This document shows positions 1,608-56,400 of a stretch of DNA of 64,000 bases, piece by piece (positions within the stretch are counted from its first letter, which is position 1; each line of letters opens with the position of its first letter). The notes under the pieces are model-generated. The model was not told the origin of the DNA. It saw only the letters and a list, made by a program, of their open reading frames with translations, and did not search any database. Position numbers and translations under genes: made by a program. This DNA is from Marsupella aquatica (Eukaryota; Plantae; Marchantiophyta), in the NCBI GenBank assembly GCA_973895155.1, contig OZ316895.1:866435-930434 (forward strand), written 5' to 3'.

Positions 1608-3253
1608 ATGAGTGACTCGGAGGATATTGGAAGAATTGGCATCGGTGGAGCTTCAGGATCACAACGATCAGACGAAGAGTCTGAGGAGGAGCTGCTACCG
1701 TTTGAAGAAGAACTAGTGTCACCGGTACGATCACCGGTGCTGCGTGCAGTGGAGGAAGTTGTACTACTACCAGAGTTGTTGGTAGTGGGGAAGAAGAGGG
1801 AGATGGCAAGATTTGGAGGAGTGAAGTTTGAGGTGGAGAAGTATGATGGTCGTATTGATTACTTGTTGTGGGAGAAGCAAGTGAAGGGTGTTCTTAGGGC
1901 CATGGGCTTAGCTCATCTGCTTTCTTCGCGAAAGCAGTATGATGGAGAGGAGGAGATTTCTGTGAAGCAGTGGAGATAGGAGCAGGTGATTGCTGTCAAT
2001 GCAGCACTGATGCTATATCTCAAGCCGCACATCATCAAGCAGCTGGATGATTATGCAGATTGCGCGTCACTGTTCAAGGCTCTAAGAGAGAAGTACTACC
2101 GGGAAGATGCGTCAGACCGGCTATACAAGAAGTCTCTCTTGATGAGCCTCAGGCTCAAGGAAGGGAGCAAGCTACACGATCACCTGGATGAGTTTGACAG
2201 TCTAGCGGTGGACTTGTCAAACCTGGGAAAAGGAGTTGAAGATGAGGATAAGGCCTTGCTTCTGCTAAGCTCCTTACCGCCGTCATATCAGGGCTTGAAA
2301 CAGGTGCTCTTGTACAGAGATCTGAAGTCCATTTTGTATAATGAGGTGGTGAGCTCTTTACTGTCTGATGATGCTCAGAAGAAGCTGGGTCAATCACAGA
2401 TAGCATCTTCTTCTGGCAATGCGCTCAATGTGAACAGGGGAAGAGCAGCGCAACGCACAAATGGGCAAAACAGGTTTAGATCTCCATCATGGGGGAGATC
2501 TCAATCCAAAGGGAAATTGCAAGAGAGAAAGCCTCTTGCGTGTTAGAATTGTGGCAAGCCTGACCACATGAAAAGGGATTGTTGAGTAAAGGTCCCTACT
2601 GCATCTGTTAACGCGGCATCGAGCTCGCATGAGGTAGATTTACTTGATGATGATGACATATTGTGATGTCAGCGTTATGCTCTCAACGTAGTGTCAAATC
2701 CAGGTAGTGATGACTGGATTCTAGATAGTGCATGTACTTTTCACATTTGCTCTAGAAAAGATTTTTTCAGTTCTTACACGGTTTCCAATGGGTCAGTGTT
2801 GATGGGAAATGGAATCCCATGTCAAGTTGTTGGACTTGGATCTGTAAGATTTCAGATGTTTGATGGTGTTGTGAGAACGTTAAGGAATGTGAGACATATT
2901 CCAAGTATGATGAAAAATCTCATTTTACTTGGAGTTTTAGAAGCAAATGACCATCAGTGGAGTTCTGCTAATGGTGTCCTTCAGGTTTCAACTAGAACTA
3001 AAGTTGTATTAAAGGGAAAGAGACATAGCAATCTATACATTTTGGAGGGCAGTGTATTGTGATGAAGCCAATGTAACCTTATCTCATGAGGAGACGGCCC
3101 GGCTGTGGCACTTCTGTTTGGGCCACATGAGTAAAAAAGGTTTGGTTATTCTTCAAAAGAAAGGATTACTTTCTAATTTGCAATCTTGTAAGTTGGAATT
3201 TTGTGAACACTGTGTGCTAGGGAAGCAGCACAGGGTACCCTTCGGAGTTGGAA
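1608..3253 (+). pseudogene. Outer copia gag / protease / pre-integrase, disrupted
   Basis: MSDSED...KFEVEKYDG gag start, zinc knuckle C*NCGKPDHMKRDC, protease WILDSACTFH, LWHFCLGH..CEHC. Stops at 1977, 2544 and 2583, gag/pol TGA at 2664-2666, frameshift near 3055. Confidence 0.92.
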
Positions 3254-3674
3254 TGTTGGGTATTTACTCTTACGTCTAGGTTAGGTATGACGTGGTTGGT
3301 ACAACAACGTGGGTTGGTACAACTACGTGGTTAGGTACAACTACGTGATTAGGTACAACTATGTGGTTAGGTACAACTACGTGATTAGGTACAACTATGT
3401 GGTTAGGTACAACTAAGTTGCACACTATATCATAAGAGGCATGTGTGCTTGGAGAGGTAGAACCAAGGCTCATTGTTATGGAGCCACTTGAGAGATAGGG
3501 AGAGCTTACACTATGGAGACTCGGTATAGCCGACGGGCTTAGAGTTCAGTAAAGCTGTCTTGTGTGTTCCCGTGGACGTAGCCTCAAGGAGGTGAACCAC
3601 GTATCTCTTGTGTCGACTATTGTGCGTTGGATGGTTCATGGGCTTGCCGTTGCGATCGTCGTCTATGCTCAACA
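3254..3674 (+). repeat. 5' LTR of inner copia, with 7 tandem ~18-bp units
   Basis: TGTTGGG...GCTCAACA; only 2 differences seen by eye versus the 3' LTR. Confidence 0.97.
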
Positions 3675-3676
3675 AT

Positions 3677-3688
3677 TGGTATCAGAGC
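3677..3688 (+). promoter_or_regulatory. Primer-binding site (initiator tRNA-Met)
   Basis: TGGTATCAGAGC, separated from the 5' LTR by 2 nt. Confidence 0.95.
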
Positions 3689-4380
3689 ATGCTTGGGAGG
3701 TGACGTGTGTTCGTGACGGGATTTCATGACGGTTTTTCCAGCGTTGAGTGTTGGTGGATTTTCCAGAGTTCCATCGCATGGAACTTGGAGTTTATGGGCT
3801 CAACGGATAGATCAGGGCAAGAGCTTTCTAACGGTGTGAAGAAATCGTTGAACGGAGCTCGTGGTGCAGAGAGATCTAAGTTTTCGTCGTTCTGGATTTT
3901 GTGAAGAAAGTTGGCAATCGACTCGGAGGGAGAAGCGTCAAGTGTTTTGACTCAACGGAGAGATTGAGGCAAGACAATTGTTTTTGAGTCCGGGATTGGC
4001 TCTTTGATGCAAAGAGGAAGGCTAAGCAAAATCAATTACCTTGTTGGACTTGGTGACGGCACCAAGTGCAATTGATCAACATTCGTTGTTGACAAGTGAG
4101 GTCGTAGCCATTGAAGTTGGCAATGCAGCGCACCAATCACATCGCAATTCCGACAACGGGTTGTACTTGGTATTTCGGTTATTCCCTAAGGTGGTCAAAA
4201 CGGGGGAGTTTCCCAAGGTTTTACCCACCTCGACCAAAATTTGAATAACTTTTCCGTCAAATTTCGATTTTGATTTTGGTTTTCAGTATTGGACTCCTAG
4301 CTTTGTGGGCTACGCGGCGGTGTTGAGTTTCGAGTTTTTTGAGAAGTTGTGAAAAACAACATTTTTTGTGACTTTCTCAT

Positions 4381-5415
4381 ATGAGTGATTCGGAGGAGTT
4401 TTTCGAAGACGTGGAACTTGAAGCACGAGGATCACCGCGGAGGTTTCAGGGGCAGAGAGAGGAGCAGGAGGAAGAGCACGTGACACCGATACCATCACCG
4501 GTGCGGCGTGTGGTGGAGGAAGCAGTACCACTACCGGAGCTCACGGTAAAGAAGAAGATGGGGACTTTCAAGCTTGGGGGACCCAAGTATGAAGTGACAA
4601 AGTATGATGGGCGCTCTGACTACTTGCTATGGGAGAAGCAGGTGAAGGGAGTGCTTTATGTGTCAGGGATGGGCCAACTGCTGAGCCCTCGTGAAGACGA
4701 TGTTGATGAGAAACAATGGGACCGCATGCAGGAGCAGGGAGTGTGGTGTGTTACACTCTATCTCATGCCTCCCATCATCAAGCAGTTAGGTGCACATAAG
4801 GATTGCATGTCCTTATTTGCGGAATTGCAGAGCAAGTATCACCGCAAGGAGTTGTCAAACCGGCTCTACACTTCCTACAAACTGATGAGTTTCAGGATGA
4901 AGGAATCTGGTACGAAGTTGCAAGACCATGTGGATGCTTTCAACGACATGGTCGTTGACTTGGAAAACCTTGGGGAGACTTTGAATGATGAGACGAAGGC
5001 TCTGCAGCTTCTTAGTTCATTGCCTCCATCTTACCAGTCCCTATCACGAGTGTTGTTGCATCGTGATAGGGATACCATTTCATACAATGACGTGGTAAGT
5101 TCTCTGCTTAGTGATGATCTTCAGCAGAAGATGCACATCACGTCACAGCCTTCATCATCTGGTGCTGCCCTCAATGTTAACCGTGGGAGGAGTATGCAGC
5201 GACCAACTGGGGACCGTAGAACCCAGTTTAGATCTAAATCCAGATCTAAGTCCAAGGGTAAATCCCCTCAGAGGAGGCAGGTGACATGTTGGAAGTGCAA
5301 CCAAGTTGGACACTTCAAGTGAGACTGTAAGGGAAAGGCAGCGGAAACTTCATCGGCAAATGTGGCTAGGGCTGATGGAGAAGCTGATTTACTCAATGAT
5401 GAGTATGTTTTATGA
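4381..5415 (+). pseudogene. Inner copia gag; one premature TGA (5320-5322) in the zinc knuckle, natural stop TGA at 5413-5415
   Basis: KYEVTKYDG start motif and CWKCNQVGHFK*DC knuckle; the sister copy at 26401-27435 has CGA (Arg) at the premature stop. Confidence 0.93.
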
Positions 5416-8400
5416 AGCCGGGGGTATGCCCTGTGCACGTCATCTAGGAGAGCAGATGATGTGTGGATTCTTGATTGTGCTTGCTCTTTTCATATTTGTT
5501 ACATTCGTGAGTTTTTCAGTTCTTACTCTGTTTCAAACGGTTCAGTTCTGATGGGAAATGATCACTCCTGTCAAATTGAGGGAATTGGGTCTGTGAAGAT
5601 TCAAATGTTTGATGGCGCTGTGCGCACAGTGTCCGGAGTCAGGTATGTACCTGGCATGCGTAAGAATCTGATTTCACTCGGTGTGTTGGATTCAAATGGT
5701 CATCAATGGAGCGTTATTGATGGTGAACTTCAAGTCAGGTCGGGAGAGACAGTAATTTTGAAGGGGAGTAGACAAAAGAATTTGTATGTGTTACAGGGCA
5801 ATACTGTATGTGGAGAGGCCAATGTAACCAAGTCTCACGAGGAGATGACTCAACTGTGGCATTCACGGCTAGGCCACATGAGTGAGAAGGGTTTGGCTAT
5901 CTTACGGAAGAATGGACTCATTTCTGATTTGCAATCTTGTAAATTAGAGTTTTGTGAGCATTGCATTCTTGGAAAGCAGCATCGTCGTGCTTTTGGTGTT
6001 GGAACTCATCGTTCCAAAGCGGTTCTTGAGTACATACATAGTGACGTGTGGGGTCCATCCCCGACTCCCTCACACTCTGGAAAGTTGTACTATGTATCAT
6101 TTATTGATGATTACTCAAGATTTGTGTGGATTTATTTCATGACGCATAAGTCTGATGTCTTGTCCATTTTTAAGAAGTGGAAGGCCCAGGTGGAGAATCA
6201 GACTGGAAACACGATCAAGTGTTTGGATACAAGGGTGAAGAGTCTGAGGTCAGACAACGGCGGGGAGTACACTTCAATGGAATTTGAAGAGTACTGTTCA
6301 GAACAGGGGATAACTCGCCATCTCACCACAGTTTATACTCCGCAGCAGAATGGTGTCGCTGAGAGGCTCAATCGAACACTGTTGGAGCGGTCACGGAGTA
6401 TGTTGAGCCAATCAGGTTTACCACAAGAATTTTGGGCAGAAGCTGTCAATACCGCAGCTTATTTGGTAAATCTTTCTCCTTCTAGTGCTATCAATTTCAA
6501 AACGCCGTTTGAGATGCGCTATAAGCGGCAAGCAGACTATCATGGCTTGGTAATTTTTGGAAGTGATGCATATGCTCTCACACCAAAGCAGAATAGGACC
6601 AAGTTGGATCCTACCTCCAGGAAATGTGTTTTTCTTGGGTACCAGAGTGGTGTGAAAGCCTATAGGCTATGGGATCCTATTGCCTGTAAGCTCGTTGTCA
6701 GTAGGGATGTTTCCTTCAATGAATCCAGATTATTGAAGGAGGGGGAGAATACTCAGGTCTCCCGTACTGACAAAGGAAAATCTCCTATCCCGGATCTCGT
6801 TGAGGGGGAGATTGGTTATGAGGTGCATGACCGGAGAGAAGGAGTTGCTCCAATTATGGAGCTGGTTCCTATGCCAGAGGAACCAGAGGAGTTTGTTGAT
6901 GCTGGTGAGCAACAAGTGGATGCTGTTGAGCTTCAAATTGTACCAGCACACGCAGATCAACCGGAGTCATCGGCTAGAAGAACATTTGGTCGCACTGTAC
7001 GCGCTCCATCAAGGTATGGACAGTGGGTTGATTCATCTCAACTGCAAGAGGATGATTTTACAGCTGATGATGAGGGTGATGCGTTAATTTTGGAAGAAGG
7101 AGAACCTTCTTCATTTCATGAGGCAAGTGCTTCAAAAGAGAAGCAGAAGTGGACTGCAGCAATGCAAACGGAGATGCAGTCACTAAAGGACAACAAAACT
7201 TGGGAGCTTGTTAAGCTGCCTAAGGGTCAGCAAGTGGTGGACAGCAAGTGGATTTACAAGCTGAAGGATAATTCCATAGGAGGTGGATCGAAGGTCTACA
7301 AGGCTAGATTGGTAGCAAAGGGATTCACACAAGAGAAAGGTGTGGATTACAATGAGGTCTTCTCACCAGTTGCTAAGTACTCTACAATACGACTATTGTG
7401 TGTACTTGTTGTAATGTTTGGTCTGCTCCTAGATCAGATGGATGTTGTCACAGCTTTCCTCTATGGCACATTGGAAGAGGTGATCTTCATGAGACAACCG
7501 CTAGGTTTTATGAAGAGAGGACAGGAGGAATTGGTTTGCAGATTGCTGAAATCCTTGTATGGGTTGAAGCAGTCACCAAGACAGTGGAACAAGCGGTTTG
7601 ACGATTGGATTCGGTCACAAGGTTTTCACAGAAATGTATTTGACCCTTGTGTGTATTTGAAACCGGTGAAGAATGTTGTCTTTGGGTTCATTGTTTTAGT
7701 ACTTTATGTGGATGACATGCTAATTGCAGCCAAGGATAGGTCTGAGATTGTTAAGCTCAAGGCACTGCTTAGTGCAGAGTTTAAGATGAAGGACTTAGGG
7801 CCAGCTAAGAGGATTTTGGGTATGGAGATCACTAGGGACTTGGAGGCTGGCAAGCTATGGTTGACGCAGAGCAGTTATGCGAGGAAGGTAATTGCAAGGT
7901 TCAACATGGAGAATAGCAAGCCAGTAAGTACCCCGTTGGCTCCACACTTCAAGTTATCATCAGCGTTCTGTCCTACGGATGACACAGAGAAGGGGTTGAT
8001 GTCAAAGGTTCCATATGACAAGGCAGTGGGGAGTCTCATGTATTTGATGACTTGCACTAGACCTGATCTTGCCATGGCTATGGGCAAGGTGAGCAGGTAC
8101 ATGTCGAATCCAGGGAAGGTACACTGGGAAGCAGTGAAGTGGATTATCAGGTACTTGAAGGGTACCGTGGATCATGGTCTTTTATTTGATGCGAATGCAA
8201 AGAATGCTAGATCATTGATTGGCTATGTAGATTCTGACTATGGACAAGATTTGGACCGAAGGAGATCAACAACAGGATACGTGTTCACACTTGGCGGTGG
8301 ATGCATAAGTTGGAGGTCTACTTTGTAGAAGTGTATTGCTCAGTCTACTACAGAAGCGGAGTATGTTGCAGCTGCGGAAGCAGCAAAGGAAGCGATTTGG

Positions 8401-8688
8401 TTGGATAGACTTATCACTGAAATGAGATTGCCACAAGGGAATGTGAAGCTCCATTGTGATAGTCAAAGTGCGCTCCACCTTGCTGTGAACCAGGTGATGG
8501 ACAGCAGAGTGAAGCACATTGACGTCAGGTACCATTTTATCAGGCAGGCTATGTCTGATAATTTGTTTGAGCTAGTCAAGATTGATGGTAAACTCAACCC
8601 GGCTGACGCATTTACCAAAGTGATTCCTTTGGAGAGTTTCTCTAGACACCGTGACGTATTGCAGGTTTTGCAATTGCATCACAAGTAG
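5416..8688 (+). pseudogene. Inner copia pol (PR-IN-RT-RNaseH), in frame with gag; one premature TAG at 8326-8328
   Basis: WILDCACSFH, HSDVWGP, LRSDNGGEY, QQNGVAER, YKARLVAKGF, LYVDDML, YVDSDY, KHIDVRYHF. The outer element has CAG at the homologue of 8326. Confidence 0.95.
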
Positions 8689-8868
8689 AGTTTTCTTAAA
8701 CATTCATTGTAATTACTGATATATGCTCTTCCTCATTCCTATGTATTAGGCTACGGCTTAGTTCTGGTTTGCTCTAGTTAGAGAGGGAAACCGGTTTGGT
8801 TTCTGTCAAGAACTTCCCGCTGAGGGATCATATACATTGACAGTATTACTCTCCCCTAGACCAGAGTC

Positions 8869-8879
8869 AAGGGGAAGAT
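8869..8879 (+). promoter_or_regulatory. Polypurine tract of inner copia
   Basis: AAGGGGAAGAT immediately before the 3' LTR. Confidence 0.9.
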
Positions 8880-9300
8880 TGTTGGGTATTTACTCTTACG
8901 TCTAGGTTAGGTATGACGTGGTTGGTACAACAACGTGGGTTGGTACAACTACGTGGTTAGGTACAACTACGTGATTAGGTACAACTATGTGGTTAGGTAC
9001 AACTACGTGATTAGGTACAACTATGTGGTTAGGTACAACTAAGTTGCACACTATATCATAAGAGGCATGTGTGCTTGGAGAGGTAGAACCAAGGCTCATT
9101 GTTATGGAGCCACTTGAGAGATAGGGAGAGCTTACACTGTGGAGACTCGGTATAGCCGACGGGCTTAGAGTTCAGTAAAGCTCTCTTGTGTGTTCCCGTG
9201 GACGTAGCCTCAAGGAGGTGAACCACGTATCTCTTGTGTCGACTATTGTGCGTTGGATGGTTCATGGGCTTGCCGTTGCGATCGTCGTCTATGCTCAACA
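8880..9300 (+). repeat. 3' LTR of inner copia
   Basis: Near-identical to 3254-3674. Confidence 0.97.
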
Positions 9301-11939
9301 TGGAACTCACACCAGCAAGGAGATACTTGAGTATGTACATAGTGATGTGTGGGGTCCAGCCCCTACTCCCTCACATTCTGGACGGTTATACTATGTCACG
9401 TTCATAGACGATTACTCAAGGTATGTGTGGATATACTTTCTACACAATAAGTCTGATGTTTTTGCCACTTTTAAGGAGTGAAAAGCCCAAGTTGAGAATC
9501 AGACTGGTAATAAGATGAGATATCTTTGATTGGATAACAGTGGTGAATACAGTTCCGGGGAATTTGGAACATATTGTAAGGAGCAGGGAATTACCCGTCA
9601 TCTCACAAGTTATACTCCTCAACAGAATGGTGTTTTTGAGAGACTCAACCAAACACTATTGGACCGCTCGAGGAGTATGTTGAGTCAATCATGCTTACCA
9701 CATGAGTTTTGGACTGAAGCTGTCAACACTGCAGCTTATTTGGTAAATTTTTCTCCATCCAGTTCTATTGGATTCAAGTCGCCATTTGAAATGAGGTACG
9801 GGCGTCCAGCTGATTACTCACATCTGAGGATTTTTGGATGTGATGTTTATGTGCTTACACCTTCCCAGCTTCAATCCAAGCTGGAGTCCAAGTCGAAGAA
9901 GTGCATTTTCCTTGGCTATCAGAAAGGTGTGAAGGGTTATAGGTTACGGGATCCAGTAACCTGCAAACTGATTGTCAATAGAGATGTGTCCTTTAATGAA
10001 TCCAGATCATCAAAGGAGGGGGAGAGTTCTCAGGACTCCCATACTGACAAGGGAAAATCTCTCATCCCGGACCGGGTTGAGGGGGAGATTAGTCATGATG
10101 CAGTTCATGACAGGAGAGATGGAGAAGCTCCAGGCTTGGAGCTGGTTCTTGTGATGGAACAAGAGAAGCAGATTGTTGCTCGGGTACCTCAAATTCAGCC
10201 AGCAACAACAGTAGATCAGCCTCAATCATCTACTAGAAGAACTTCTAGTCGTTCTACTATAGCTCCTACCAGGTATGGTCAATGGGAGACTCATCTAAGC
10301 TAGATGATATTGACATTGCACCTGATGATGATGACATGGCTTTGATCTTGGAAGAAGGAAAGCTTTCTTTGTACAATGAGGTTTGTGCTTTAGAGTAGAA
10401 GCATGAGTGGAATGCAGCAATGCAGAGGGAGTTGCAATCTTTGAGTGACAACAAGACGTGGGAGCTGGTGGAGCTTCCAAAAGGTCAACAAGTGGTGGAA
10501 AGCAAGTGGATGTACAAGTTGAAGGACAGTCCTTTAGAGGGTGGAGATAAGATCTACAAGGCAAGGCTTGTTGCCAAGGGGTTCACTCAGGAGAAAGGAG
10601 TGGACTACAATGAGGTATTTTCACCGGTGGCTAAGTATTCCACAATTCGGATCTTGTGTCAGCTTGTTGTGTTTTTTGGTCTGGTGATGGATCAGATGGA
10701 TGTTGTTACTGCTTTTCTCTATGGCAACTTGGAAGAGTTGATCTTCATGAGACAGCCACTAGGCTTTATGAAGAAGGGCCAAGAGAACTTAGTTTGTAGA
10801 TTGCTCAAGTCCTTGTATGGATTGAAGCAGTCTCCCAGACAGTGGAACAAGCAGTTTGATGATTTCATGCTTGCTCAAGTTTTTACAAGGATGGTGTATG
10901 ATCCTTGTGTGTATACGAAATCAGTCAAGAATGATGTATTTGGTTTCATCATTCTGGTGATCTATGTGGATGACATGCTGAGTGTGGCTAAAGATCAATC
11001 TGAGATTGACAATCTCAAGGCAAAATTGAGTGCTCAATTCAGGATGAAGGATCTTGGTAAGGCCAAGAGGATCTTAGGGATGAAGATTTTTAGGAACTCT
11101 GAAACTGGACAATTGTGCTTGAGTCAAGGCCAGTATGCGAGGAAAGTACTTGCACGATTCAACATGGAGAACTGTAAGCCAGTGAGTATTCCTTTAGCTT
11201 CACATTTCAAGTTATCATCGGTTTTTTCTCCTACGGATGCTGTGGAAAAAGGTCTGATGGCTAAGATTCCTTATGAGAAGGCAGTAGGTAGTCTGATGTA
11301 TTTGATGACTTGTACTAGGCCTGACTTGGCCCTAGCGATGGGCAAGGTTAGCAGATTCATGTCAAATCCAGGGAAGGTACATTGGGAAGCTGTGAGATGG
11401 ATTCTCAGGTATGTGAAGGGAACACAGGACTATGGATTACTATTGATAATAGATCAAATAGAATGTTAGTTGGCTATGTAGATTCTGACTATGGAGGTTG
11501 TTTGGACACAAGGAGGTCTACAACTGGGTTTGTATTTACTCTTGGATGAGGATGTATTAGTTGGAAATCTACCTTGCAGAAGTGTATATCTCAATTTACT
11601 ACAGAAGCAGAGTATGTTGCAGCAGCGGAAGCAGCAAATGAAGCAATTTGGTTGGACAAGTTGATCGCGAAGATGGGTTTAGAGCATGGCGCAATGACTC
11701 TAAACTGTGATAGTCAGAGTGCTCTTCACTTGGCTGCTAACTAGGTGATGGATAGCAGGGTGAAGCACATTGACATCAAGTACCATTTTATCAGGCAAGC
11801 AGTGTCTGATAAAACTTTTGAGCTAGTCAAGATTGATGGAAAGCTCAATCCCGCTGATGTTTTTACCAAAGTGATTCATTTGGAGAGTTTCTCAAGACAC
11901 CATGCTACTTTGCAGGTTTTGCAGTTGTAGTGCAAGTAG
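9301..11939 (+). pseudogene. Outer copia pol continuation (IN-RT-RNaseH), multiple stops and frameshifts
   Basis: HSDVWGP, QQNGVFER, YKARLVAKGF, IYVDDML and KHIDIKYHF split over ORFs 9188, 9530, 10420 and 11745. Confidence 0.93.
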
Positions 11940-12159
11940 AGTTATTTAGCAATGTGTGACTATTTGTATATGGATTACTCATTCCAGTTTGGCTACGGCT
12001 TAGTTCTAGTTAACCCTTAGTCAACCCTTGTGTAACCCTTAGTCAACCCTTGTGGTTTTTAGGGGGACACCTGGTTTGGTAATTGTCTAGAACTTCCCGC
12101 TGAGGATTCCATATGGTAGCATTTAGTCCAGTCCCCAAGACAAGAGTCAAAGGGGAGTT

Positions 12160-12503
12160 TGTTAGATATTGCTCTAGTCTTGTGACTCATGAGCTAACTA
12201 GAGTTAAGCTAACTTGGGTTAGGACTTAGCCAATGTTAGCGGTAGTGCTGTTGTGTATATAGTCGGGGCTGATGCCAGACCCTGGTGGAACTTAGGCTTA
12301 TTGTTACGGAGCTAGTTGAGAGATAGGGAGAGCTTGTGCTGTGGATGCTTGGTATGGCCGGTCGGCCTAGGGTGCAGTAAAGGTCTTGTGTGTTCCCGTG
12401 GACGTAGCCTCATGTGGAGGTGAACCACATATCTTTCTGTGTCGACTCTTGTGCATTGGATGGTTCATGGGCTTGCCGTTGCGAATGTCGTCTATGCTCA
12501 ACA
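12160..12503 (+). repeat. 3' LTR of outer copia (344 bp)
   Basis: Follows PPT AAAGGGGAGTT; TGTTAG...GCTCAACA. The 3' half is similar to the inner LTR; the 5' half is different and lacks the 18-bp array. Confidence 0.9.
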
Positions 12504-14238: not shown

Positions 14239-17200
14239 ATGTCGGAGGAAGTTTTAGGGCTGGTCGTCGGACAAGTTTTGGGAGCAATTAATGAAGTAGC
14301 GAAATTCCTCAACATGCCCTCGAACAGGAGCCAGGTGCATTATGGAACAGCCGCCGTTGTTGTGGTCGCTGTGGCCGCAGCTGTCACCGGTGGTATTGCG
14401 ATCTACTTGAGCGACGGGTAAGCATTCAAATTGGCTAGGGAGACTGAATCACTGTTTGAATAAATTACAGAGACAGGGACAAAGAGAGGCAGTAGTACCG
14501 CATGATTGGTCTAGTCTAAATAGGCTCTGAAACGACACGGGGTTTATCGAGAGCATGAGACCGGACTAGTGGTCTGATGCACTTGGTAGATGCCTCTAAT
14601 CCGTCCCTTAAACAACTACAACAGGTTTGGTCATTTCGAAGATTGGGGCTCTAATGAACTCTGCCAGAAAGGCATTCTCCAATTTCCAAAATTCGCGGTT
14701 TGGGAGCAGCCGCATTTAAGCAAAAGAATCAGAGTGTGCTGCGGGATGGGTTTTCATAGCCAGATGGGGTTCCATGCGGCATTTGACGGACATGGATTGT
14801 CCGATGGCTCCACGATTGCAGAGATTCCAATGTGTATAAATTTTGATTGCTCCAAGCAGTTTAAGGCCCTCTAATAGTGATAATATGTGACGGTGTTTTG
14901 GTTGCGTGTTTTGGTTACTCCTAATGGGAACTGATGGCTGATGGCCTCCCTTCGCTCTCCATTTTTAATCTTCCTGATTCGTGCGAGGGAAGGATATGGT
15001 GGATTTTATTTCATTTCACTCTGATGGCGAATCATATTTCTGGAAACTACCATGTGAATTTGACAAAAGTAGAGGATGTTTCCCATGAAGCTGTGTCTTT
15101 CCTTTGTTAGGTGTGAATTGATCGTCGTGCTGCAACCTGAGCGCCTCGTTTGTCTGTGGGAAGCAGGAAACCTCCCCGGGTTCGCAAACAGAAGCATTAT
15201 CCCTTAAAAAGACAGCAGTGGCTGGAATCTTTCGAATCAAGAGAAGGCCGACTGGTGGATCCGGGAAGAGTCATTGGCATAGCTCGGAGAGGGGTAAGAT
15301 TATGTTTGGCTTTACCCTAACATGTCTTGGGTTTGCAGCGGAATAGTGCAGTTGGCGAATCTCGAGTTGTTGTAATTGACCTCTAAGTCCACGTTGAGAC
15401 GGTAGTACTTCCTCTCACCTCTTACATGAGGAAACTTATCAGGAAATTGGACTATTTGCTATGAATTTTTGCAAGGTCACATTCGGTGGATATCTTCGTT
15501 GTGGTTGAGTCTATGGTTAAACGTTTGAATGATGATGGAGTCATAGCGCAGCTTTGTAATGTTGAGGGCAGTTTGTCAATCATTACTTGACTGTCTAGCT
15601 GCCAATTCTGCAAAGAGTTGAATGAACTCATGCAAATGGATCGTAGTTTCTGATTCACTGTGACAGGGAATTGATATAAGCATTCGGGCAGACGTATGGC
15701 CCTTCTTATTAGGATTGTAAGCAATACTCCACCACGATTGCATGAGCTTAATTTAAATTTCCTCCAGTACTACTTTCGTTAACACTTAAACCTATGAGAC
15801 GAAAGGACGCAAAAATATCTCTACTCTGCTTTTGTTTTGAGTTGGCCTTCGTCCATATGTCGGAGGGTGGGATCTGTCAACGACTCTGATTTTCAGAGCT
15901 CATGACAGTACTTTAAGGTCCCTACTTCAAAGTTTTCTCAACTGCTCACTTGTAATGCGATGCATCAACTATCGTTTAATTTCTTCGTGCTGGTCCTTAC
16001 TTGCAGATATGAACTTAGCAGCACAGAAGCAGAACGAGCAGCAGCAGACTTTGTGCACAAGTATGTTTTTATCCATGATCACTCACTGCTGAATTACTTT
16101 GTTGCGAACAATAGATGGAGACATGTCATCTCGATTTCTTTGCTAAATGCTTTTACTTCTTGAAATGATAAGCTGCCGGAATCTGTCCTGGAACAAGGTA
16201 TTAGTAGCAGGGAATCTCCATTGTCTAAGCCAGCGTTACTAACGACTATGGTTATAGGGATGCGCATCAAGGCACATGAATGTGGTTATTGACATTCAAT
16301 TCTGTAAGTTCACCCTAACATTCCCTGCTTATACTCTCTTCAGGGAGGAGTTTGATGAACTGAGGAGGCAGTGTGATGTGTTGAGAGAACATGTTGCCTC
16401 CGAGTTGAAAAGACGGAGGTTAGAGAAAGACGACTCGGGGTCTTTTGAGAAAGTAAACGAAGCTGAGGTATTGGCGTCAATGTTGGAAGGGAAGGCTGGC
16501 ACAGATGGCAATGATTCACCTCCAAGGACAGACAATGAGAAAGGGAATGATACTCCAACTACACCCAAATCCGAAATGGTGCTGGATGATGAACCTTCGA
16601 AATATCCCATGGTTGACAGTTTCTTGAAAAGGGGACACAAGGTACTGGAGGATTTTAGGGACTGGCTCAGAATCATTCGGCTGGATGCTGTACGTATGAA
16701 CGCGGAATGGGTACCATATTCGGCTGTACAAGCAAATGTGACAGAAGAAGAGGCTGATAGACGCGCAAATGAGGTTGGGATACAAGATCATGGCCATCTA
16801 GAGGCTAGCAGAACACACCATGCAGCACGTTTGGTTGCAATTCTGGAAGCTTATGCCTTGTATGATCCAGAAACTGGGTACTGTCAAGGGATGAGTGACT
16901 TGCTTTCCCCATTTGTAGCTCTGATGGAGTCAGACTCTCAGGCATTTTGGTGTTACGTACAATTCATGAAGCAGGCAAGGGATAATTTTCGTATGGATGA
17001 AACTGGCATTCGGAGACAGTTGCAGCTGGTGGCTAAGATCTTCAAAGTTTCAGATCCACAGTTCTATGACCATTTGCTGAAAATCCAAGCTGAAGATTGT
17101 TTTTTTGTGTATCGCATGATAGTGGTCCTTCTTCGGAGGGAGCTGACTTTTGAACAAACAGTCTGTTTGTGGGAGGTGATTTGGGCTGATTGGGCTGCAC

Positions 17201-17466
17201 TTCGAATGAAAAGTAGCAACTTGTTATCGGACAGTAAGGATGGCAAGCGAATGCTACCTGCATCCAAAGACTTCCTTTTGTTCACTATAGCTGCTGCTGT
17301 CTTGCAGCAAAGAAGGTTTATAATTGAAAAGTGCAGAGGAGTGGATGAGATATTGAGGGAATGTAATGCCATGGCTGGGAAACTAGACATATGGGAACTT
17401 ATGGATTTTGGTCGAGATCTTCTAAGAGATTATCAACAGAAAGTTGGCCATGAAAAAACCGACTAG
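14239..17466 (+). CDS. TBC-domain Rab GTPase-activating protein (plant TBC1D15/GYP7-like), 5 exons, 510 aa: join(14239..14417,15167..15293,15667..15716,16007..16060,16344..17466)
   Basis: All introns are GT-AG with consistent phases (1533 nt total). Motifs GIDISIRADVWPFLLG, IIRLDAVR (IxxDxxR), YCQGMSDL (YxQ) and LRRELTFEQTVCLWE; N-terminal hydrophobic segment. Confidence 0.93.
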
Positions 17467-24085: not shown

Positions 24086-26400
24086 ATCATATTTGACTCT
24101 ATCATTGTGTTCCCACCCAAATACACACTGCTTATGTGTTCATCACTCTTTGTCATTTTGAGATTTGTGGCCATTTGCGTGAGAGTTTAGGTAGAAACTT
24201 TAATGCATATGAGGGGGTATTGAGAGTGCGAAGGGTGCCCGCTAATGATCAGCAAAATATTCACTCTGATTTCTACGATGAGTTAGGGGTGGCAAGAGCA
24301 ATTTTCCAAAGGAATTATCTCTCTCAATCAACAGCATGATACACCACTAGGCACGACGAAACAAGCAGTCTATATAATTAGATCTTGGATCCTTGTCCAC
24401 TTGTCCATAGTACAAGACAGCGAGCTCAATAAAGACAATCCATAGCGTTGGTAGATCCTACCCAATGATGAGGTTTCTTGATTGAGTGGTGCATACAACC
24501 ATAGTCAGCCACTAGTGGTAGTTTTCATCCCCTCCCTGGTTGCTATTTTACTTTCCTAAATTTACTCGCCAAAATCACTGCTCCTTACCAGAGAACTGAC
24601 TTCCTTACTGGCAGCTTTTGTTTTGAATTGCTGGTCCAAAACAATGCAGTTTTTGTCAGGGTTAGCGCAGTGAGAAAGGAAGCTGTCGCCATATTTCCAG
24701 AGTTTAAATCTACAAGGAGGAAGCAAAAAATCAAGCCTAATCTTAACGCTCCACTTGGCTTCTTTACCATGAGGTCCCTCCCTTGGTAGCTTCAGTTACT
24801 TTTCCTATATTAACAAACTAGCCCAATGCCTATTGGTTGCACAATGTTGTTCGTAGGAATTGTTGTATAGCATAAATGAGAGTACCAAGCAGTCAGCACT
24901 GTCGAGAGTCCATGAGTCACCCTGGCAGCTGGATTTCAAGGAGTGTGAAGCTGTGAGGAGAGATGGTTGGGAGTGGAAAAGATGTACAATGTCACTTTCA
25001 GGACCATCTCACGGCTAAATAAAACATGTTACCATACTCCAATGGTCAAGGAGACTGCCCAACAGAATTACATTTTGTAAAGAGACCATGAGAGAAACAG
25101 AGTGGGATTGCAGATTATTGTGTTCAGATTCCAGGGGTTTCCACCACCAGAGACGTCTGCTCGATAGAGGTTTCCCTTACTTAAAATAATAATAATCTCT
25201 CTTGGAAAAATGATTTTACCCCCGATTTTACTCGTAGGGGTTTGCCATAATTGTCCACCGTTTGAAACAGATTCATTTCAAAGGAGGTTTTACTGTTCGC
25301 TCATTAACATACAGCAGGGCCTTTAAGGAATTCCCAGGGTGAAAGAGATCTCCAAAATAGTTGCTGATGGTAAGGGGAGGCTACAATTAACAGATGAACA
25401 GATGAAAGTCACACTGAGCACGATAATCATTACTGATGATTACGAGGACGCTTAGATTTGTGCGCTGAACATTCGCATACTTACTAACATGCTTGTCCAC
25501 CCACCCCACAATCGCATTTGTCTGGATGTCTCTACATCTAACCAATAATGCTTTGCCTTGGCCTCCTAATGCACCCGCTCCCAGTTGCCCATAATGTGCA
25601 CAGTGTGTCCATTGTCATTGTGACACTCAGCGCCTGGTTGGTTGCCCTACGGCCATTGTGTACAAGTCTACAAGATGTTGGCAACAATGGTTTTCGAGAG
25701 TGGGTCCCTTGCGCTTCACGAGGCGCAACCAATCAGGCAAGTACTGGTTTGAAGTTTGTCATCGTTATGTCTACAGTGGCTACGTGATTTCCGTATACTA
25801 TAGTGATGTGCAAATAGCATAAACAAATTCTCTGAATTCTATCTCAAATCATTCGTTGCGTCCCCATTGGACGAAGCGTTATTCACAGAGTGAGGCATCC
25901 TCTGCAAAATATTCTCTGCTTAAACCTATGGCTGCTTGTTACGTCTGTATCAACTTTGTCTTTAGCTTTCTTTCTAATCTGCTTTCCCTTTGTTGAGCCT
26001 CTCCACATACAGTATTGCCCTGTAACACATACAAATTCTTTTGTCTACTCCCCTTCAAAATCACTGTCTCTCCCGACCTGACTTGAAGTTCACCATCAAT
26101 AACGCTCCATTGATGACCATTTGAATCCAACACACCGAGTGAAATCAGATTCTTACGCATGCCAGGTACATACCTGACTCCGGACACTGTGCGCACAGCG
26201 CCATCAAACATTTGAATCTTCACAAACCCAATTCCCTCAATTTGACAGGAGTGATCATTTCCCATCAGAACTGAACCGTTTGAAATAGAGTAAGAACTGA
26301 AAAACTCACGAATGTAACAAATATGAAAAGAGCAAGCACAATCAAGAATCCACACATCATCTGCTCTCCTAGATGACGTGCACAGGGCATACCCCCGGCT

Positions 26401-27435
26401 TCATAAAACATACTCATCATTGAGTAAATCAGCTTCTCCATCAGCCCTAGCCACATTTGCCGATGAAGTTTCCGCTGCCTTTCCCTTACAGTCTCGCTTG
26501 AAGTGTCCAACTTGGTTGCACTTCCAACATGTCACCTGCCTCCTCTGAGGGGATTTACCCTTGGACTTAGATCTGGATTTAGATCTAAACTGGGTTCTAC
26601 GGTCCCCAGTTGGTCGCTGCATACTCCTCCCACGGTTAACATTGAGGGCAGCACCAGATGATGAAGGCTGTGACGTGATGTGCATCTTCTGCTGAAGATC
26701 ATCACTAAGCAAAGAACTTACCACGTCATTGTATGAAATGGTATCCCTATCACGATGCAACAACACTCGTGATAGGGACTGGTAAGATGGAGGCAATGAA
26801 CTAAGAAGCTGCAGAGCCTTCGTCTCATCATTCAAAGTCTCCCCAAGGTTTTCCAAGTCAACGACCATGTCGTTGAAAGCATCCACATGGTCTTGCAACT
26901 TCGTACCAGATTCCTTCATCCTGAAACTCATCAGTTTGTAGGAAGTGTAGAGCCGGTTCGACAACTCCTTGCGGTGATACTTGCTCTGCAATTCCGCAAA
27001 TAAGGACATGCAATCCTTATGTGCACCCAACTGCTTGATGATGGGAGGCATGAGATAGAGTGTAACACACCACACTCCCTGCTCCTGCATGCGGTCCCAT
27101 TGTTTCTCATCAACATCGTCTTCACGAGGGCTCAGCAGTTGGCCCATCCCTGACGCATAAAGCACTCCCTTCACCTGCTTCTCCCATAGCAAGTAGTCAG
27201 AGCGCCCATCATACTTTGTCACTTCATACTTGGGTCCCCCAAGCTTGAAAGTCCCCATCTTCTTCTTTACCGTGAGCTCCGGTAGTAGTACTGCTTCCTC
27301 CACCACACGCCGCACCGGTGATGGTATCGGTGTCACGTGCTCTTCCTCCTGCTCCTCTCTCTGCCCCTGAAACCTCCGTGGTGATCCTCGTGCTTCAAGT
27401 TCCACGTTTTCGAAAAACTCCTCCGAATCACTCAT
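26401..27435 (-). CDS. Intact copia Gag, 344 aa, ending at the conserved TGA
   Basis: Open frame with complete CWKCNQVGHFKRDC knuckle; the protease follows in frame after the TGA. Confidence 0.9.
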   Translation of the reverse strand: MSDSEEFFENVELEARGSPRRFQGQREEQEEEHVTPIPSPVRRVVEEAVLLPELTVKKKMGTFKLGGPKYEVTKYDGRSDYLLWEKQVKGVLYASGMGQLLSPREDDVDEKQWDRMQEQGVWCVTLYLMPPIIKQLGAHKDCMSLFAELQSKYHRKELSNRLYTSYKLMSFRMKESGTKLQDHVDAFNDMVVDLENLGETLNDETKALQLLSSLPPSYQSLSRVLLHRDRDTISYNDVVSSLLSDDLQQKMHITSQPSSSGAALNVNRGRSMQRPTGDRRTQFRSKSRSKSKGKSPQRRQVTCWKCNQVGHFKRDCKGKAAETSSANVARADGEADLLNDEYVL

Positions 27436-28141
27436 ATGAGAAAGTCACAAAAAATGTTGTTTTTCACAACTTCTCAAAAAACTCGAAACTCAACACCGCC
27501 GCGTAGCCCACAAAGCTAGGAGTCCAATACTGAAAACCAAAATCAAAATCGAAATTTGACGGAAAAGTTATTCAAATTTCGGTCGAGGTGGGTAAAACCT
27601 TGGGAAACTCCCCCGTTTTGACCACCTCAGGGAATAACCGAAATACCAAGTACAACCCGTTGTCGGAATTGCGATGTGATTGGTGCGCTGCATTGCCAAC
27701 TTCAATGGCTACGACCTCACTTGTCAACAACGAATGTTGATCAATTGCACTTGGTGCCGTCACCAAGTCCAACAAGGTAATTGATTTTGCTTAGCCTTCC
27801 TCTTTGCATCAAAGAGCCAATCCCGGACTCAAAAACAATCGTCTTGCCTCAATCTCTCCGTTGAGTCAAAACACTTGACGCTTCTCCCTCCGAGTCGATT
27901 GCCAACTTTCTTCACAAAATCCAGAACGACGAAAACTTAGATCTCTCTGCACCACGAGCTCCGTTCAACGATTTCTTCACACCGTTAGAAAGCTCTTGCC
28001 CTGATCTATCCGTTGAGCCCATAAACTCCAAGTTCCATGCGATGGAACTCTGGAAAATCCACCAACACTCAACGCTGGAAAAACCGTCATGAAATCCCGT
28101 CACGAACACACGTCACCTCCCAAGCATGCTCTGATACCAAT

Positions 28142-28616
28142 TGTTGAGCATAGACGACGATCGCAACGGCAAGCCCATGAACCATCCAACGCACAATAGT
28201 CGACACAAGAGATACGTGGTTCACCTCCTTGAGGCTACGTCCACGGGAACACACAAGAGAGCTTTACTGAACTCTAAGCCCGTCGGCTATACCGAGTCTC
28301 CACAGTGTAAGCTCTCCCTATCTCTCAAGTGGCTCCATAACAATGAGCCTTGGTTCTACCTCTCCAAGCACACATGCCTCTTATGATATAGTGTGCAACT
28401 TAGTTGTACCTAACCACATAGTTGTACCTAACCACATAGTTGTACCTAATCACGTAGTTGTACCTAACCACATAGTTGTACCTAATCACGTAGTTGTACC
28501 TAACCACATAGTTGTACCTAATCACGTAGTTGTACCTAACCACGTAGTTGTACCAACCCACGTTGTTGTACCAACCACGTCATACCTAACCTAGACGTAA
28601 GAGTAAATACCCAACA
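28142..28616 (-). repeat. 5' LTR of third copy (475 bp; 10 tandem 18-bp units)
   Basis: 421 bp plus 3 x 18 bp relative to the inner LTRs. Confidence 0.95.
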
Positions 28617-43660: not shown

Positions 43661-43951
43661 TGTTGGGGATTACCCTATCCATTAACACCATGCACATGTA
43701 AAAACCATACAAAGTAATCGACATAACGAGTACGTGGTTCACCTCACGATTGAGGCTACGTCCACGGGAAATCAAGAGACCTTTATTTCTCTCTTGCTCC
43801 ACTCTAACAATGAACTGAAGATCCATCAGGGGCAGGCATCAGCCCTGGTTATATACAGTATGCATCACTGCTAACCTAAGCTAAGTCCTAACCTGAGTTA
43901 TCCTAACTACGGTTAGTTCTAGAGTCACAAGACTAAGAGCAATACTCAACA
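43661..43951 (-). mobile_element. Solo LTR related to the outer copia (291 bp)
   Basis: TG...CA ends; TSD AATGC (43656-43660 / 43952-43956); shares CCCGTGGACGTAGCCTCA..GGTGAACCAC and the LTR start with 12160-12503. Confidence 0.88.
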
Positions 43952-46069
43952 AATGCATTATGCAGTGAAAAGTTTCTCATTTACAAGAGCTTTGCACAAG
44001 AAGGTAGTGTACTAACGCGTAAGACATTTAAATTTCCATTTCTGGACATTTCTCTTCACAGAACCTGAAAACTTTCAGCAAGAATCAACAGTCACGTGTG
44101 CCTGTGCATCCACATAGCCGGCTTGATCTTTTGCCTCCCCAGTAAGGTTAAAATTTGAGATTATTGCTACATCAAATATCATTATTATATCGGTTAGACT
44201 ATTTAGGTGTGTAGTAAACTCCTCTCTAGCACCCACTGTGTGCCATAATGCCCAAAAAATGAGAGCTTAGGTTCAAATTTTGAGATGTTATTAATACCCA
44301 TTGCTCAAGTAACAGGATCATAATACAATTATTTTAAAAAAAATTCTAAAATTTTGAACTCTGGATCATAATGCAATTAAGGGCCTAAGACATTTTTATT
44401 TTAACTAAACTTAGTAAAAGTAAATTAGAATCTTCATAATGAGTTTATCCCAATCTTGAGTGTGCATCTTCTCCAATATGGTCCTGAAATTAGAAGAGAA
44501 AATCACTAAGGGCAGTCAGAGCCAACTTGCATGGACGCCGCAGTCCTCAAGCTGTTGACCCTTAATCCCAAGACTGCCAGAAAAACAAACAGATTGCAAT
44601 TTGCATAGGATATGCTCCCTTGTTTCGTGTGAACCCTGCATCAGCATGTTTGTTTTATTCTCATTGCAAAGTATGGGACCTCAAGTGCGGGACAGTTTCT
44701 GGCCCTTGCCCTTGGTTACGTTGTCCATTTTGTATGTCATAAGCCCTACCTGACAAGGGGGTTTCTCCACAGAATTCTGAGTCAATATATGACTGCCATC
44801 TGTAAAAATTTGAGGGCCAGAAAACTAAGGGTCAAGAAAACTAAACCTCGAGAATGCGGCCATTTGCACTCAAAAAAATAGCTCTTCGTTGATATCATAA
44901 GCTGCCACAATCTGCTATGGCAGAGTTCACAACAGGTGTAGTGGCTTGTTGTTTTATATCTCATCCAAAGAAAAAGCGCATCCGAAATTATCAATCAGAG
45001 AAAAACAAAGCGGGAAACAAAGTACATTGAAAGGAAAGAGAAAGAGTTCCTAAGAGGGCAAAACGTAACCAGAAAAAAGAAAAGCATAAACCTAAAAAAA
45101 AAGTACTAATAAAAAGAGAAAAATGTCAAGCACTACATGAGAGCAAACTTTATGACTAGTGTCTACATGAGAGCAAACTTTATGACTACCGTAGTATCTA
45201 CATCCAAAGGTTGGGACCTACAAGGGCCCCAAAGTTTCCAGCCTTTGTCCATGTGTCAGCACAAGACCTGCCATCAAGCCTGCCTTATGAGGGGCTCACA
45301 CTATGGCAGCCTAAATGAATGAGATTATGACACCTTAAGGAAAGCGCCTATGACATGTGAGTTGGGCCTTACAATTCAATGGTGCAAGTCTTGGCTAGGA
45401 AATTAGATTTTACAGTCCTTTTAAACATGTAGTGTAGTTTGCTCTCATGTAGTGTTTGACACTTTTCTCGTTTTATTGGTCCTTTTTTTAGGTTTACACT
45501 AGCTTTTCTTTTTCTGGCTAGGTGTTTGTCCTCTTTGGAACTCTTTCATTTCATTGGACTTTGTTTTTCTCTGATTTATAAATTCTGGTGCACTTTCCAT
45601 TTTGAAACTAGTCGAGACAATGTAAAGAGCACAGATATCGAGTGATGGACAAGAATTTTTCCCCAAATAGCATACACTGTCGTAAGTTGACACTTGTAAG
45701 AAACACATTTTGGTTACCACTGTTGAGTTTTACCAAACACCAACTCCTATCCAGTGATAGTGTCTATATGATATTGAAAACGAATATTCACCTCTGAATC
45801 TTCTTCCATAACTCACACATGACTCTTGTCTTTCATACCAATTCTTGTGTATAATTGACTACTATTCGTCCCTAAATATAGCGCCATATAAAATAAGTAG
45901 GTAAGTACATCTAAACTATTGAAGACATATAAACCAATTCTCAAATTTGTTTTCATATTACCTTGTATAATGATATAATGTAAAAGGAAATAATATTAAA
46001 GAAAAATGCCCAAAATAACAGTTTATTGGTGTTTTGGCCTCGTATCAGTATTTTTTAAGTGCAAATTTT

Positions 46070-54051: not shown

Positions 54052-54384
54052 TGTTGAGCAAAGACTTAATTGCAATGGCATTCTCCAGACCTTCCAACAA
54101 ATAAGTAATCAACAGAGTGAGATACTTGGTTCACAGGAACACATGAACGTTTTGCTGCACTCCAGGCCCGTCAGCCATACCTAGTCTCCGCAGCACAAAC
54201 TCTCTCTATCTCTCAAGTGACTTCTAATATTACAATGAGTGAGTCTGAGTTCCTCCTCCACTAGCAAACACTGCTTGTGTATGTAAGAGGTAGCACAACT
54301 AACCTAACCAAGTTTGCAACTGTCTATGGTTAGCCTAACTATGGCTACAATTATAACTCTAGACCTATGAGTAAATACCTAACA
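54052..54384 (-). mobile_element. Solo LTR related to the inner copia (333 bp, diverged)
   Basis: Minus strand reads TGTTAGGTATTTACTC...GCTCAACA; TSD AAATA (54047-54051 / 54385-54389). Confidence 0.88.
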
Positions 54385-55049: not shown

Positions 55050-56400
55050 CCATTTTGGGCATTAGATGGGCATAATTGTTTTGTAAGAACTTTGAAAAAC
55101 ATTTGTATCAACAACTATGTAATTATAATAAATTAGGATGCTGTGTTTTCATACTGGACCTCCATTCAGATTGATTCTTATCAGCTGTTGATTTAGGCCA
55201 CTTGGAGGCGTACGTATGTGGAGGCACACCTAAACGGAGTTCTCTAATTTAAATAACCTGAAGGCATGGAAAAACATATCTCTAATTTAAACTTGAAGGT
55301 ATGGGGCTTGATAAAAGACAAGACAACCCAGATCAATCTGCTTCATCAAAATTAAATTAAATTAACTCAACTCAATGGCAAAAAGCAGCCAAGAAAGCAG
55401 CCAAGCATTCAAAAGCTAAGGTTATCAACTTTCAAACTGAGCAGTAAAAGGGCATTCAGAAACAAGTAAAGACCTAGGAAGGATGAGAAGATGCCAACTT
55501 TACCACGAGAGTTAAAATAGGATTTCAGCCAATTTGACAATGATGTCCATATAGTCTGGATAGACAACACACAGACAGACAGAGGGATCTGAGTAAATCA
55601 TGGAGAATATTATACCCAACGTCCAGTATTGGGGATTTTACAAGAGGGCCAAGCGAGGGCCATGGCAGTTTAGGCACCATTTTCTCTGATGAACAGAATT
55701 TTCACCATTTCTTCAAACTACCCCAGCAACTTCTGCCTACTTTCCATGCTGGGAATGTCCAAGCCTATGTTGCAAATTGGTTTGGATCGCACCTTTTGGA
55801 GGTTGAAAAATATTTTGTTGATCAAACTGAGGAGCAAACCACCCCTACTCGTAAGACAACATGCACATACAGTCCATACAGTGCAACATCCAACTAACAC
55901 ACAAGTACTTGATACGGAATATAGATGGTTAACCTCACCACAAGGCCCGGGAACACACAAGAAAGTTTCACTGAACTCTGAGCTTATTGACAACTATGAC
56001 TGGATTTTCACAGACTAAGCAATCCCTTTCTTCCAACTGGCTTCGTCATAATATGCTGAGCGTAAGTTCCACTCACTAAACTATGTCTTGCTTGTGAATA
56101 CAATAGTAACACATAAAACCTTAGCCAAGCACCTGCTTATGGTTTGTATGATTGCAGTTACACAATAATCCTCGAGCTAAGAGTAAATCCCTATCATCGC
56201 TTGCCCAATATGTACTTTTGCATTGCCATCATCAGCACTCCTGCCGGGGTCACTGGATTCTCTTTAGAAAAGCCCGTGACACTTTTTCATGTTTTTCTGC
56301 CTCTGTTGGGCCTGGCATCTAATTGGACACCTAAATCCGGGCTTAGTTTCAGCCCCGGTAAAAAATGCCTGTTAGTGCTACAGCAGTCTTGCATTGTCCC
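55050..56400 (+). pseudogene. Possible highly decayed LINE ORF2 fragment
   Basis: Weak RT-like remnants (PFSLMN, near RPISLLN); low certainty. Confidence 0.25.

Follow-up and report, generated by a model that had tools for sequence, protein, structure and literature searches.

A conserved in-frame UGA between gag and pol in a liverwort lineage of Ty1/copia retrotransposons, a candidate for readthrough

The window, by which we mean the whole stretch of 64,000 nucleotides analysed here, holds three copies of Ty1/copia retrotransposons (Table 1). An inner element is inserted in the pol of an outer element, and the 5' part of a third copy lies on the opposite strand. The inner element has two LTRs, a target-site duplication (TSD), a primer-binding site (PBS) and the GAG-PR-IN-RT order of Ty1/copia by Pfam; the placement of RNase H in its pol was inferred from the copia order. 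The PBS TGGTATCAGAGC is presumably of the initiator-Met, full-tRNA type. It adjoins the LTR, and the half-tRNA PBS or self-priming by which Bryco, Bianca and TAR are recognized (in the portion of PMC6317226 consulted) is not found here. The inner LTRs differ at two of 421 positions, the TSD is the same on both sides, and pol contains a single private stop (8326-8328); the element is young and its pol is nearly open. The outer element shares 54% of Gag residues and 61-75% of Pol residues with the inner one and represents a separate, older family.

Table 1. Features of the copia copies in the window.
Feature	Position	Strand	Basis or remark
Inner copia element	3254-9300	+	LTRs, TSD and Pfam order
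Inner 5' LTR	3254..3674	+	421 nt, TG...CA; TSD TGGAA at 3249-3253
Inner PBS TGGTATCAGAGC	3677..3688	+	Sequence; directly after LTR
Inner gag	4381..5412	+	Retrotran_gag_2 and CCHC knuckle; private stop 5320-5322
In-frame TGA closing inner gag	5413..5415	+	Context TTA TGA AGC CGG
Inner linker SRGYALCTSSRRADDV, stop to protease Trp	5416..5463	+	16 open codons, without AUG
Predicted 11-bp stem-loop, candidate stimulator	5435..5464	+	Folding; starts 20 nt past stop
Inner pol: PR, GAG-pre-integrase, IN, RT, RNase H region	5416..8688	+	Pfam; gag frame
Inner 3' LTR	8880..9300	+	Followed by TSD TGGAA at 9301-9305
Outer gag	1608..2663	+	Three private stops: 1977, 2544, 2583
Outer homologous in-frame TGA	2664..2666	+	Context TTG TGA TGT CAG
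Outer pol and 3' LTR, ending near 12503	2667..12503	+	Interrupted by inner insertion 3254-9300; several frameshifts
Third copy, 5' part only: LTR, gag, TGA, protease	25993..28616	-	98.8% identical to inner
Third-copy gag	27435-26404	-	344 codons, intact open reading frame
Third-copy TGA	26403-26401	-	gag and pol in one frame

Several minor features accompany these elements. The LTRs carry a tandem 18-nt repeat (3290-3415, 8916-9041, 28398-28580) present in different numbers of copies in the inner element and the third copy, and the outer 5' leader (600-1300) is GC-rich over some 700 nt, a stretch missing from the inner element. The protease active-site motif (5473-5481) reads D-C-A in the inner and third copies, as in the database protein P0173, and D-S-A in the outer element and in the metagenome locus L001 described below. 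Decayed short LTR-like fragments of the same family lie at 43715-43953, 54129-54222 and 55948-55983, and a host exon with a RabGAP/TBC domain (Pfam PF00566) lies at 16258-17463 on the forward strand.

An earlier note on this DNA had claimed that gag and pol share one frame and are split by a TGA at the homologous codon of all three copies. The TGAs are present, in DEYVL*SRGYAL (inner), in DDDIL*CQRYAL (outer) and on the reverse strand in the third copy, and at each of them gag and pol are in one frame. The codons between the TGA and the protease WILD motif are open, as had been described, with exactly 16 to the Trp in every copy; the gag of the third copy is indeed intact, and the other gag stops are each private to one copy. 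The number of cases, however, has to be lowered, since the third copy matches the inner one at 98.8% of 2535 nt, so that the window holds two independent cases rather than three. Variants were called with four DNA runs (1390, 550, 265 and 114 contigs), one of which may derive from the source of this DNA: no change at 5413-5415 occurs among the best-supported 40 of 89 variant rows, and the private stop at 5320 is replaced in nearly all of the depth of the same runs. Young members carrying a sense codon at this position, which the earlier note had envisaged as a counter-observation, appeared in none of the data seen, minor variants being possible.

A further junction came from metagenomes, in which a single locus out of 79, L001, falls within the clade; it reads DDIAL*SQTSALCTSSNRNGDVWILDSAC, again a TGA followed by 16 codons. 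The other loci are relatives at 25-38% identity, mostly continuous or randomly broken; GTDB contigs gave four loci, none within the clade, and viral contigs gave no matches. The independent DNA junctions (inner, outer and L001) therefore number three, each with a TGA and 16 codons and none with an indel. Their dS is 1.9-2.1, so the TGA and its spacing have survived near saturation, although three TGAs by themselves are not significant against TAA or TAG. Crude counts near saturation give dN/dS values between the inner and outer elements of 0.16 for PR, 0.19 for IN, 0.12 for RT and 0.21 for gag. Judged by these ratios (0.12-0.19), pol is under purifying selection after the lineages split, which implies that the stop is somehow bypassed and argues against both decay and the borrowing of Pol from a fused partner.

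Protein relatives indicate how widespread the arrangement is. A search with Gag gave 39 matches among 2209 candidates, 32 of them at 40% identity or more. Twenty-three of the 32 (pairwise identity 37-98%, median 59%) terminate at the homologous site, which lies 22-44 residues past the zinc knuckle, typically in D-L-L-D-D-D-Y-A-L, and Leu is the last residue in 23 of 24 such proteins when the query is included; a protein end reveals neither the stop codon used nor a pol downstream. The remaining nine comprise four that stop before the knuckle, two that end 16-20 residues beyond it and three (two Marchantia gene models and one degenerate sequence) that run into non-protease sequence. Continuation from the knuckle into protease was seen in none of the 32 homologues at 40% or more. 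With 23 of 32 at one site, the position of the stop, as read from protein ends, is far beyond chance.

A longer-protein search gave 10 matches among 4207 candidates, all 25-33% identical, and hence no fused relative above 33% among those 10 long matches. The protease region gave 78 matches among 623 candidates; where a Gag is present, its identity does not exceed 37%, and the closest match (60%) begins at a Met within the protease, without Gag. An unindexed profile search, considered for the best 150 of 11650 matches (148 of them new), placed no fused protein among the 31 representatives at least 40% identical to a clade member; seven of the nine representatives that pass the knuckle have the site-type motif end, and among the matches listed fused proteins start at 38% identity. 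The named clade members come from Calypogeia fissa, Marchantia polymorpha and Riccia fluitans, and a homologue present in a protein atlas (P0028) falls in generic streptophyte Gag clusters only. The earlier description of a plant copia family thus holds for the plant assignment but is too broad: the lineage is narrower, and every named close relative comes from a liverwort.

A quick tree built from 85 Gags separates the 24 stop-ended rows from 60 fused rows and one gag-only row by a branch of SH-aLRT 100; the rows were hand-chosen, the nine non-site proteins and P0017 being excluded. Another quick tree, with 62 rows, gives the same picture. The stop-ended Gags form their own long-branch clade, and the nearest named fused matches are labelled TNT 1-94-like. 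The RT motif, as we take it, resembles that of Tork; the prevailing organization of Tork (Tnt1-like) elements, a single continuous gag-pol ORF, is not the one seen here, where the stop is conserved. Because the inner element, the outer element and their clade all carry the stop, their common ancestor carried it too, and the comparison as a whole supports a stop that is inherited and lineage-wide rather than a product of decay.

The stop may be older still. Four more distant Gags (P0161, P0256, P0309 and P0270) end 23-42 residues past the knuckle with an acidic-hydrophobic-Leu tail, P0256 and P0309 being named from Riccia fluitans. Three of them, P0161, P0256 and P0270, group with the stop clade (SH-aLRT 89-94), which makes it possible that the stop predates the core clade. 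Separately, one locus (L018) has gag only, without pol in any of the frames; it ends in DDISL* (1258-1266) with a TTA TGA AGY context like that of the inner element. It has a relative named from Salvia, and proteins of its type (P0287, P0262) form a clade of their own, without support as sister to the liverwort clade. These L018-type elements are possibly TR-GAG-like.

How Pol is made past such a stop can be judged from the junctions. We regard UGA readthrough, which the earlier note had proposed alongside a small splice or reinitiation event, as moderately probable and as the best single explanation for a lineage-wide stop with Pol expressed beyond it; any role of the hairpins described in that note is putative. 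Under readthrough, the inherited UGA would end gag and a small share of ribosomes would continue in frame to give Gag-Pol, so that a single genomic RNA would yield mostly Gag by termination and little Gag-Pol. The UGA would be decoded by a near-cognate tRNA, probably that for Trp, Cys or Arg, and readthrough would take the place of the splice-and-polyadenylate route of single-ORF angiosperm copia elements. To our knowledge, land plants lack nuclear A-to-I editing and selenocysteine routes; both editing of the stop and selenocysteine decoding of UGA were rejected on this general ground. Recurrent deamination of CGA or TGG was also rejected, as it would not produce a shared end in 23 of 32 proteins together with the absence of any sense-codon member.

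The codons around the stop do not follow the classical signals, which comprise Type I (UAG CAR YYA), Type II (UGA CGG/CUA) and Type III (in the part of PMC11166343 consulted). The contexts are TGA AGC CGG (inner), TGA TGT CAG (outer) and TGA AGC CAG (L001), that is, UGA-A/U without CARYYA, in agreement with the non-TMV context noted earlier; the TMV signal of Type I is thus absent. Type II is departed from in that AGC or UGU follows the UGA and in that the main stem starts 17-20 nt downstream, as against the 6-12 nt that is frequent for that type, and Type III (MuLV, with UAG, a purine-rich octamer and a pseudoknot) in that the stop is UGA. What is present is the mark of the gag-stop-pol class (Tca2, VdLTRE5, Tj1, MuLV), a single in-frame gag/pol stop conserved among relatives. 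Since UGA-A/U lies outside the classical contexts, readthrough would need a stimulator.

The stem-loop some 20 nt downstream is a candidate stimulator only. Hairpins had been claimed after the stops of the inner and outer elements; both fold, but in different registers, and neither is clearly beyond shuffled sequences (z of -1.61 and -1.35 for 65 nt, and of -0.63 and -0.08 for 100 nt). Of 709 windows in its own element, the inner hairpin is one of the nine with the most stable fold. The same pairing, in the same register, is possible in L001 with a single compensatory change, and the outer copy keeps eight of 14 pairs; over the 14-bp stem, 83% of cells pair, with that one compensatory change (n=3 sequences). 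The three-way consensus reaches -8.1 kcal/mol, weaker than the gag-only 5th percentile of -9.2. The covariation check that had been suggested gave a score which 178 of 500 shuffles also reached.

Among the alternatives, a minor spliced RNA might remove the stop, with part or most of gag, and join the gag start in frame to pol; spliced pol mRNAs of the foamy-virus type are an analogue. An AG stands at +1/+2 after the stop in the inner element and L001, the last 30 nt ahead of the stop are rich in T in all three junctions (39-42% against 23% in gag), and all three have a phase-2 GT (AA|GTATGA), roughly 810-820 nt upstream and close to where gag starts, that would be joined in frame with the +2 AG. 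Nevertheless, no AG acceptor is shared by the three: the outer element lacks the one at +2, the inner lacks the one at +6, and L001 has only those two. The common donor fits only three to four of seven scored positions and lies within a conserved K-Y-D motif, and no donor scoring at least 5 is common to all three. Wherever the +2 AG was seen, the next base is a pyrimidine, a requirement of Ser codons, and the T-richness is explained by Asp, Leu and Tyr codons. Splicing does have precedents, for Ogre excises its stop-containing region (as covered in PMC6317226) and plant copia elements commonly splice around the protease (as covered in PMC5580714). Codon +1 stays Ser or Cys and codon +2 stays Gln or Arg across the junctions; two single-contig loose ends, S-Q-R-Y-T-L-C and S-Q-D-Y-A-L-C (variants covering 5418-5450), encode the Gln as CAA, by which the AG at +6 is lost and the residue kept. 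The Gln kept as CAA and the conserved +1 and +2 residues suggest that these codons are translated. Given the AG after the stop, the T-rich tract, the weak GT and a decayed outer copy, splicing retains a minor share of the probability.

Pol might instead arise as a separate protein, by reinitiation, by non-AUG internal initiation or from a weak promoter within the element, close to the junction. The stop context is not one of the classically leaky ones, and the Tca2 junction holds a minor promoter, its bypass being non-canonical (in the text of PMC2194720 available). The linker, however, offers little to start from: the stretch from the stop to the active site of the protease contains no AUG, and the three junctions have no in-frame near-cognate start in common, which weakens reinitiation. 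The AUGs that overlap the stop (A-UGA, UG-AUG) are out of the pol frame, and a separate Pol would not require the frame and spacing across the stop that are conserved. We therefore consider a separately made Pol improbable, and less probable than splicing. Least credible, and very unlikely in our view, is that stop-bearing elements are non-autonomous Gag producers which use the Pol of a fused partner and never bypass the stop. Gag-only TR-GAG elements do occur in plants (PMC4350172, as far as its accessible part goes), L018, which has gag only, ends similarly, and each of the three window copies is defective. Against this, the Pol of the stop-bearing lineages has diverged under purifying selection, a fused member inside the clade was never found among the matches listed, and 5413-5415 is unchanged in the best 40 of 89 variant rows of the four runs with 5320 changed. 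Readthrough thus stays the preferred reading.

Comparable junctions are known from fungi. Tca2 (pCal), a Ty1/copia element of Candida albicans to which the earlier note had rightly pointed, has a single UGA between gag and pol, which share a frame; CARYYA is missing there too, the mechanism is unsettled, and its junction alone gave no readthrough in a yeast reporter (PMC2194720, in the sections consulted). It is a single fungal family with an 8-nt purine-rich spacer followed by a predicted pseudoknot (PMC2194720), whereas the liverwort clade is from plants, has diverse members, and combines UGA-A/U with a weak stem-loop some 20 nt past the stop. VdLTRE5, a Ty1/copia element of Verticillium dahliae, likewise has gag-UGA-pol without CARYYA, with readthrough inferred only, but it consists of two copies in one fungus with no clade-wide conservation shown in the part of the report consulted (PMC3441728). 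Tj1, Tcry1 and Tosmo1-3 of fission yeasts likewise have an in-frame gag/pol TGA conserved among relatives; they are Ty3/gypsy elements with the leaky context GAA TGA CT, which is absent in the liverwort clade (bioRxiv 10.1101/2022.12.06.519325, in the part available).

The plant elements compared differ in other ways. EVD, BARE1 and Tnt1/Tork-like elements share the domain order, the Met-type PBS and the 5-bp TSD, and the single-ORF angiosperm copia elements are 25-38% identical to the clade in Gag and about 50% in the protease region. These elements have a continuous gag-pol ORF and obtain an excess of Gag by splicing and early polyadenylation rather than by a stop in the genomic sequence (PMC5580714, in the part consulted). 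RIRE2 of rice has a stop between ORFs but is a gypsy element and a readthrough candidate only (PMC2754532, likewise in part); the stop of SIRE1 of soybean lies after pol, between pol and env (as given in PMC2194720). Ogre and Bianca have two ORFs, separated by roughly 170-270 nt and not by one codon, and the survey of 80 green-plant species that describes two-ORF Bianca and Ogre leaves Marchantia unmentioned in the portion consulted (PMC6317226). A term search of the accessible text of a liverwort genome paper (PMC9985172) found neither gag nor stop codons mentioned. No land-plant copia element with gag-UGA-pol was found in the literature searched, which covered few subscription papers and had the recoding survey of Gao et al. 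(2003) outside it.

The arrangement would therefore be a known strategy, the gag-UGA-pol of fungal copia elements, in a plant copia lineage in which it is apparently undescribed. Plant copia elements are described as having a single ORF and no translational recoding, with Gag excess arising from splicing (PMC5580714, in the part consulted), which agrees with the single gag-pol ORF that the earlier note took as normal. A liverwort clade in which the gag stop is fixed offers a natural exception to that picture, and it includes the model Marchantia polymorpha. If readthrough is true, a non-classical UGA context would be added to the few nuclear readthrough signals on record for plants.

The origin of the stop has left possible traces. 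A Y-[AV]-L motif occurs twice around it with a 7-codon period (5404-5415 and 5425-5436), and the TGA is in register with a Cys codon (EYVL* and GYALC; in L001, DIAL* and TSALC). In a fused relative (the set of P0173, P0304 and P0306) a single D-Y-A-L-C stands 13 residues before the protease Trp, the distance of the post-stop copy; this relative is not a sister group, and the overall spacing in the stop-bearing elements is not above average. The knuckle-to-Trp spacing is 45, against a median of 44 in fused relatives (n=103). An origin of the stop in a short duplication is speculative. The fullest scenario is correspondingly tentative and, taken whole, rather doubtful: an old liverwort copia clade, found across both major classes of liverworts, would have switched from splicing to programmed UGA readthrough through a non-classical signal, the stop deriving from the Cys codon of a duplicated YALC and the terminated Gag ending where the protease would otherwise cut.

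For annotation, the consequence is that pipelines demanding one intact ORF would call every member of the clade dead. Two Marchantia gene models (P0024 and P0033) join gag past the knuckle to sequence beyond the protease and skip the stop; these joins are probably predictor artefacts, and their position matches that of an EVD-type intron.
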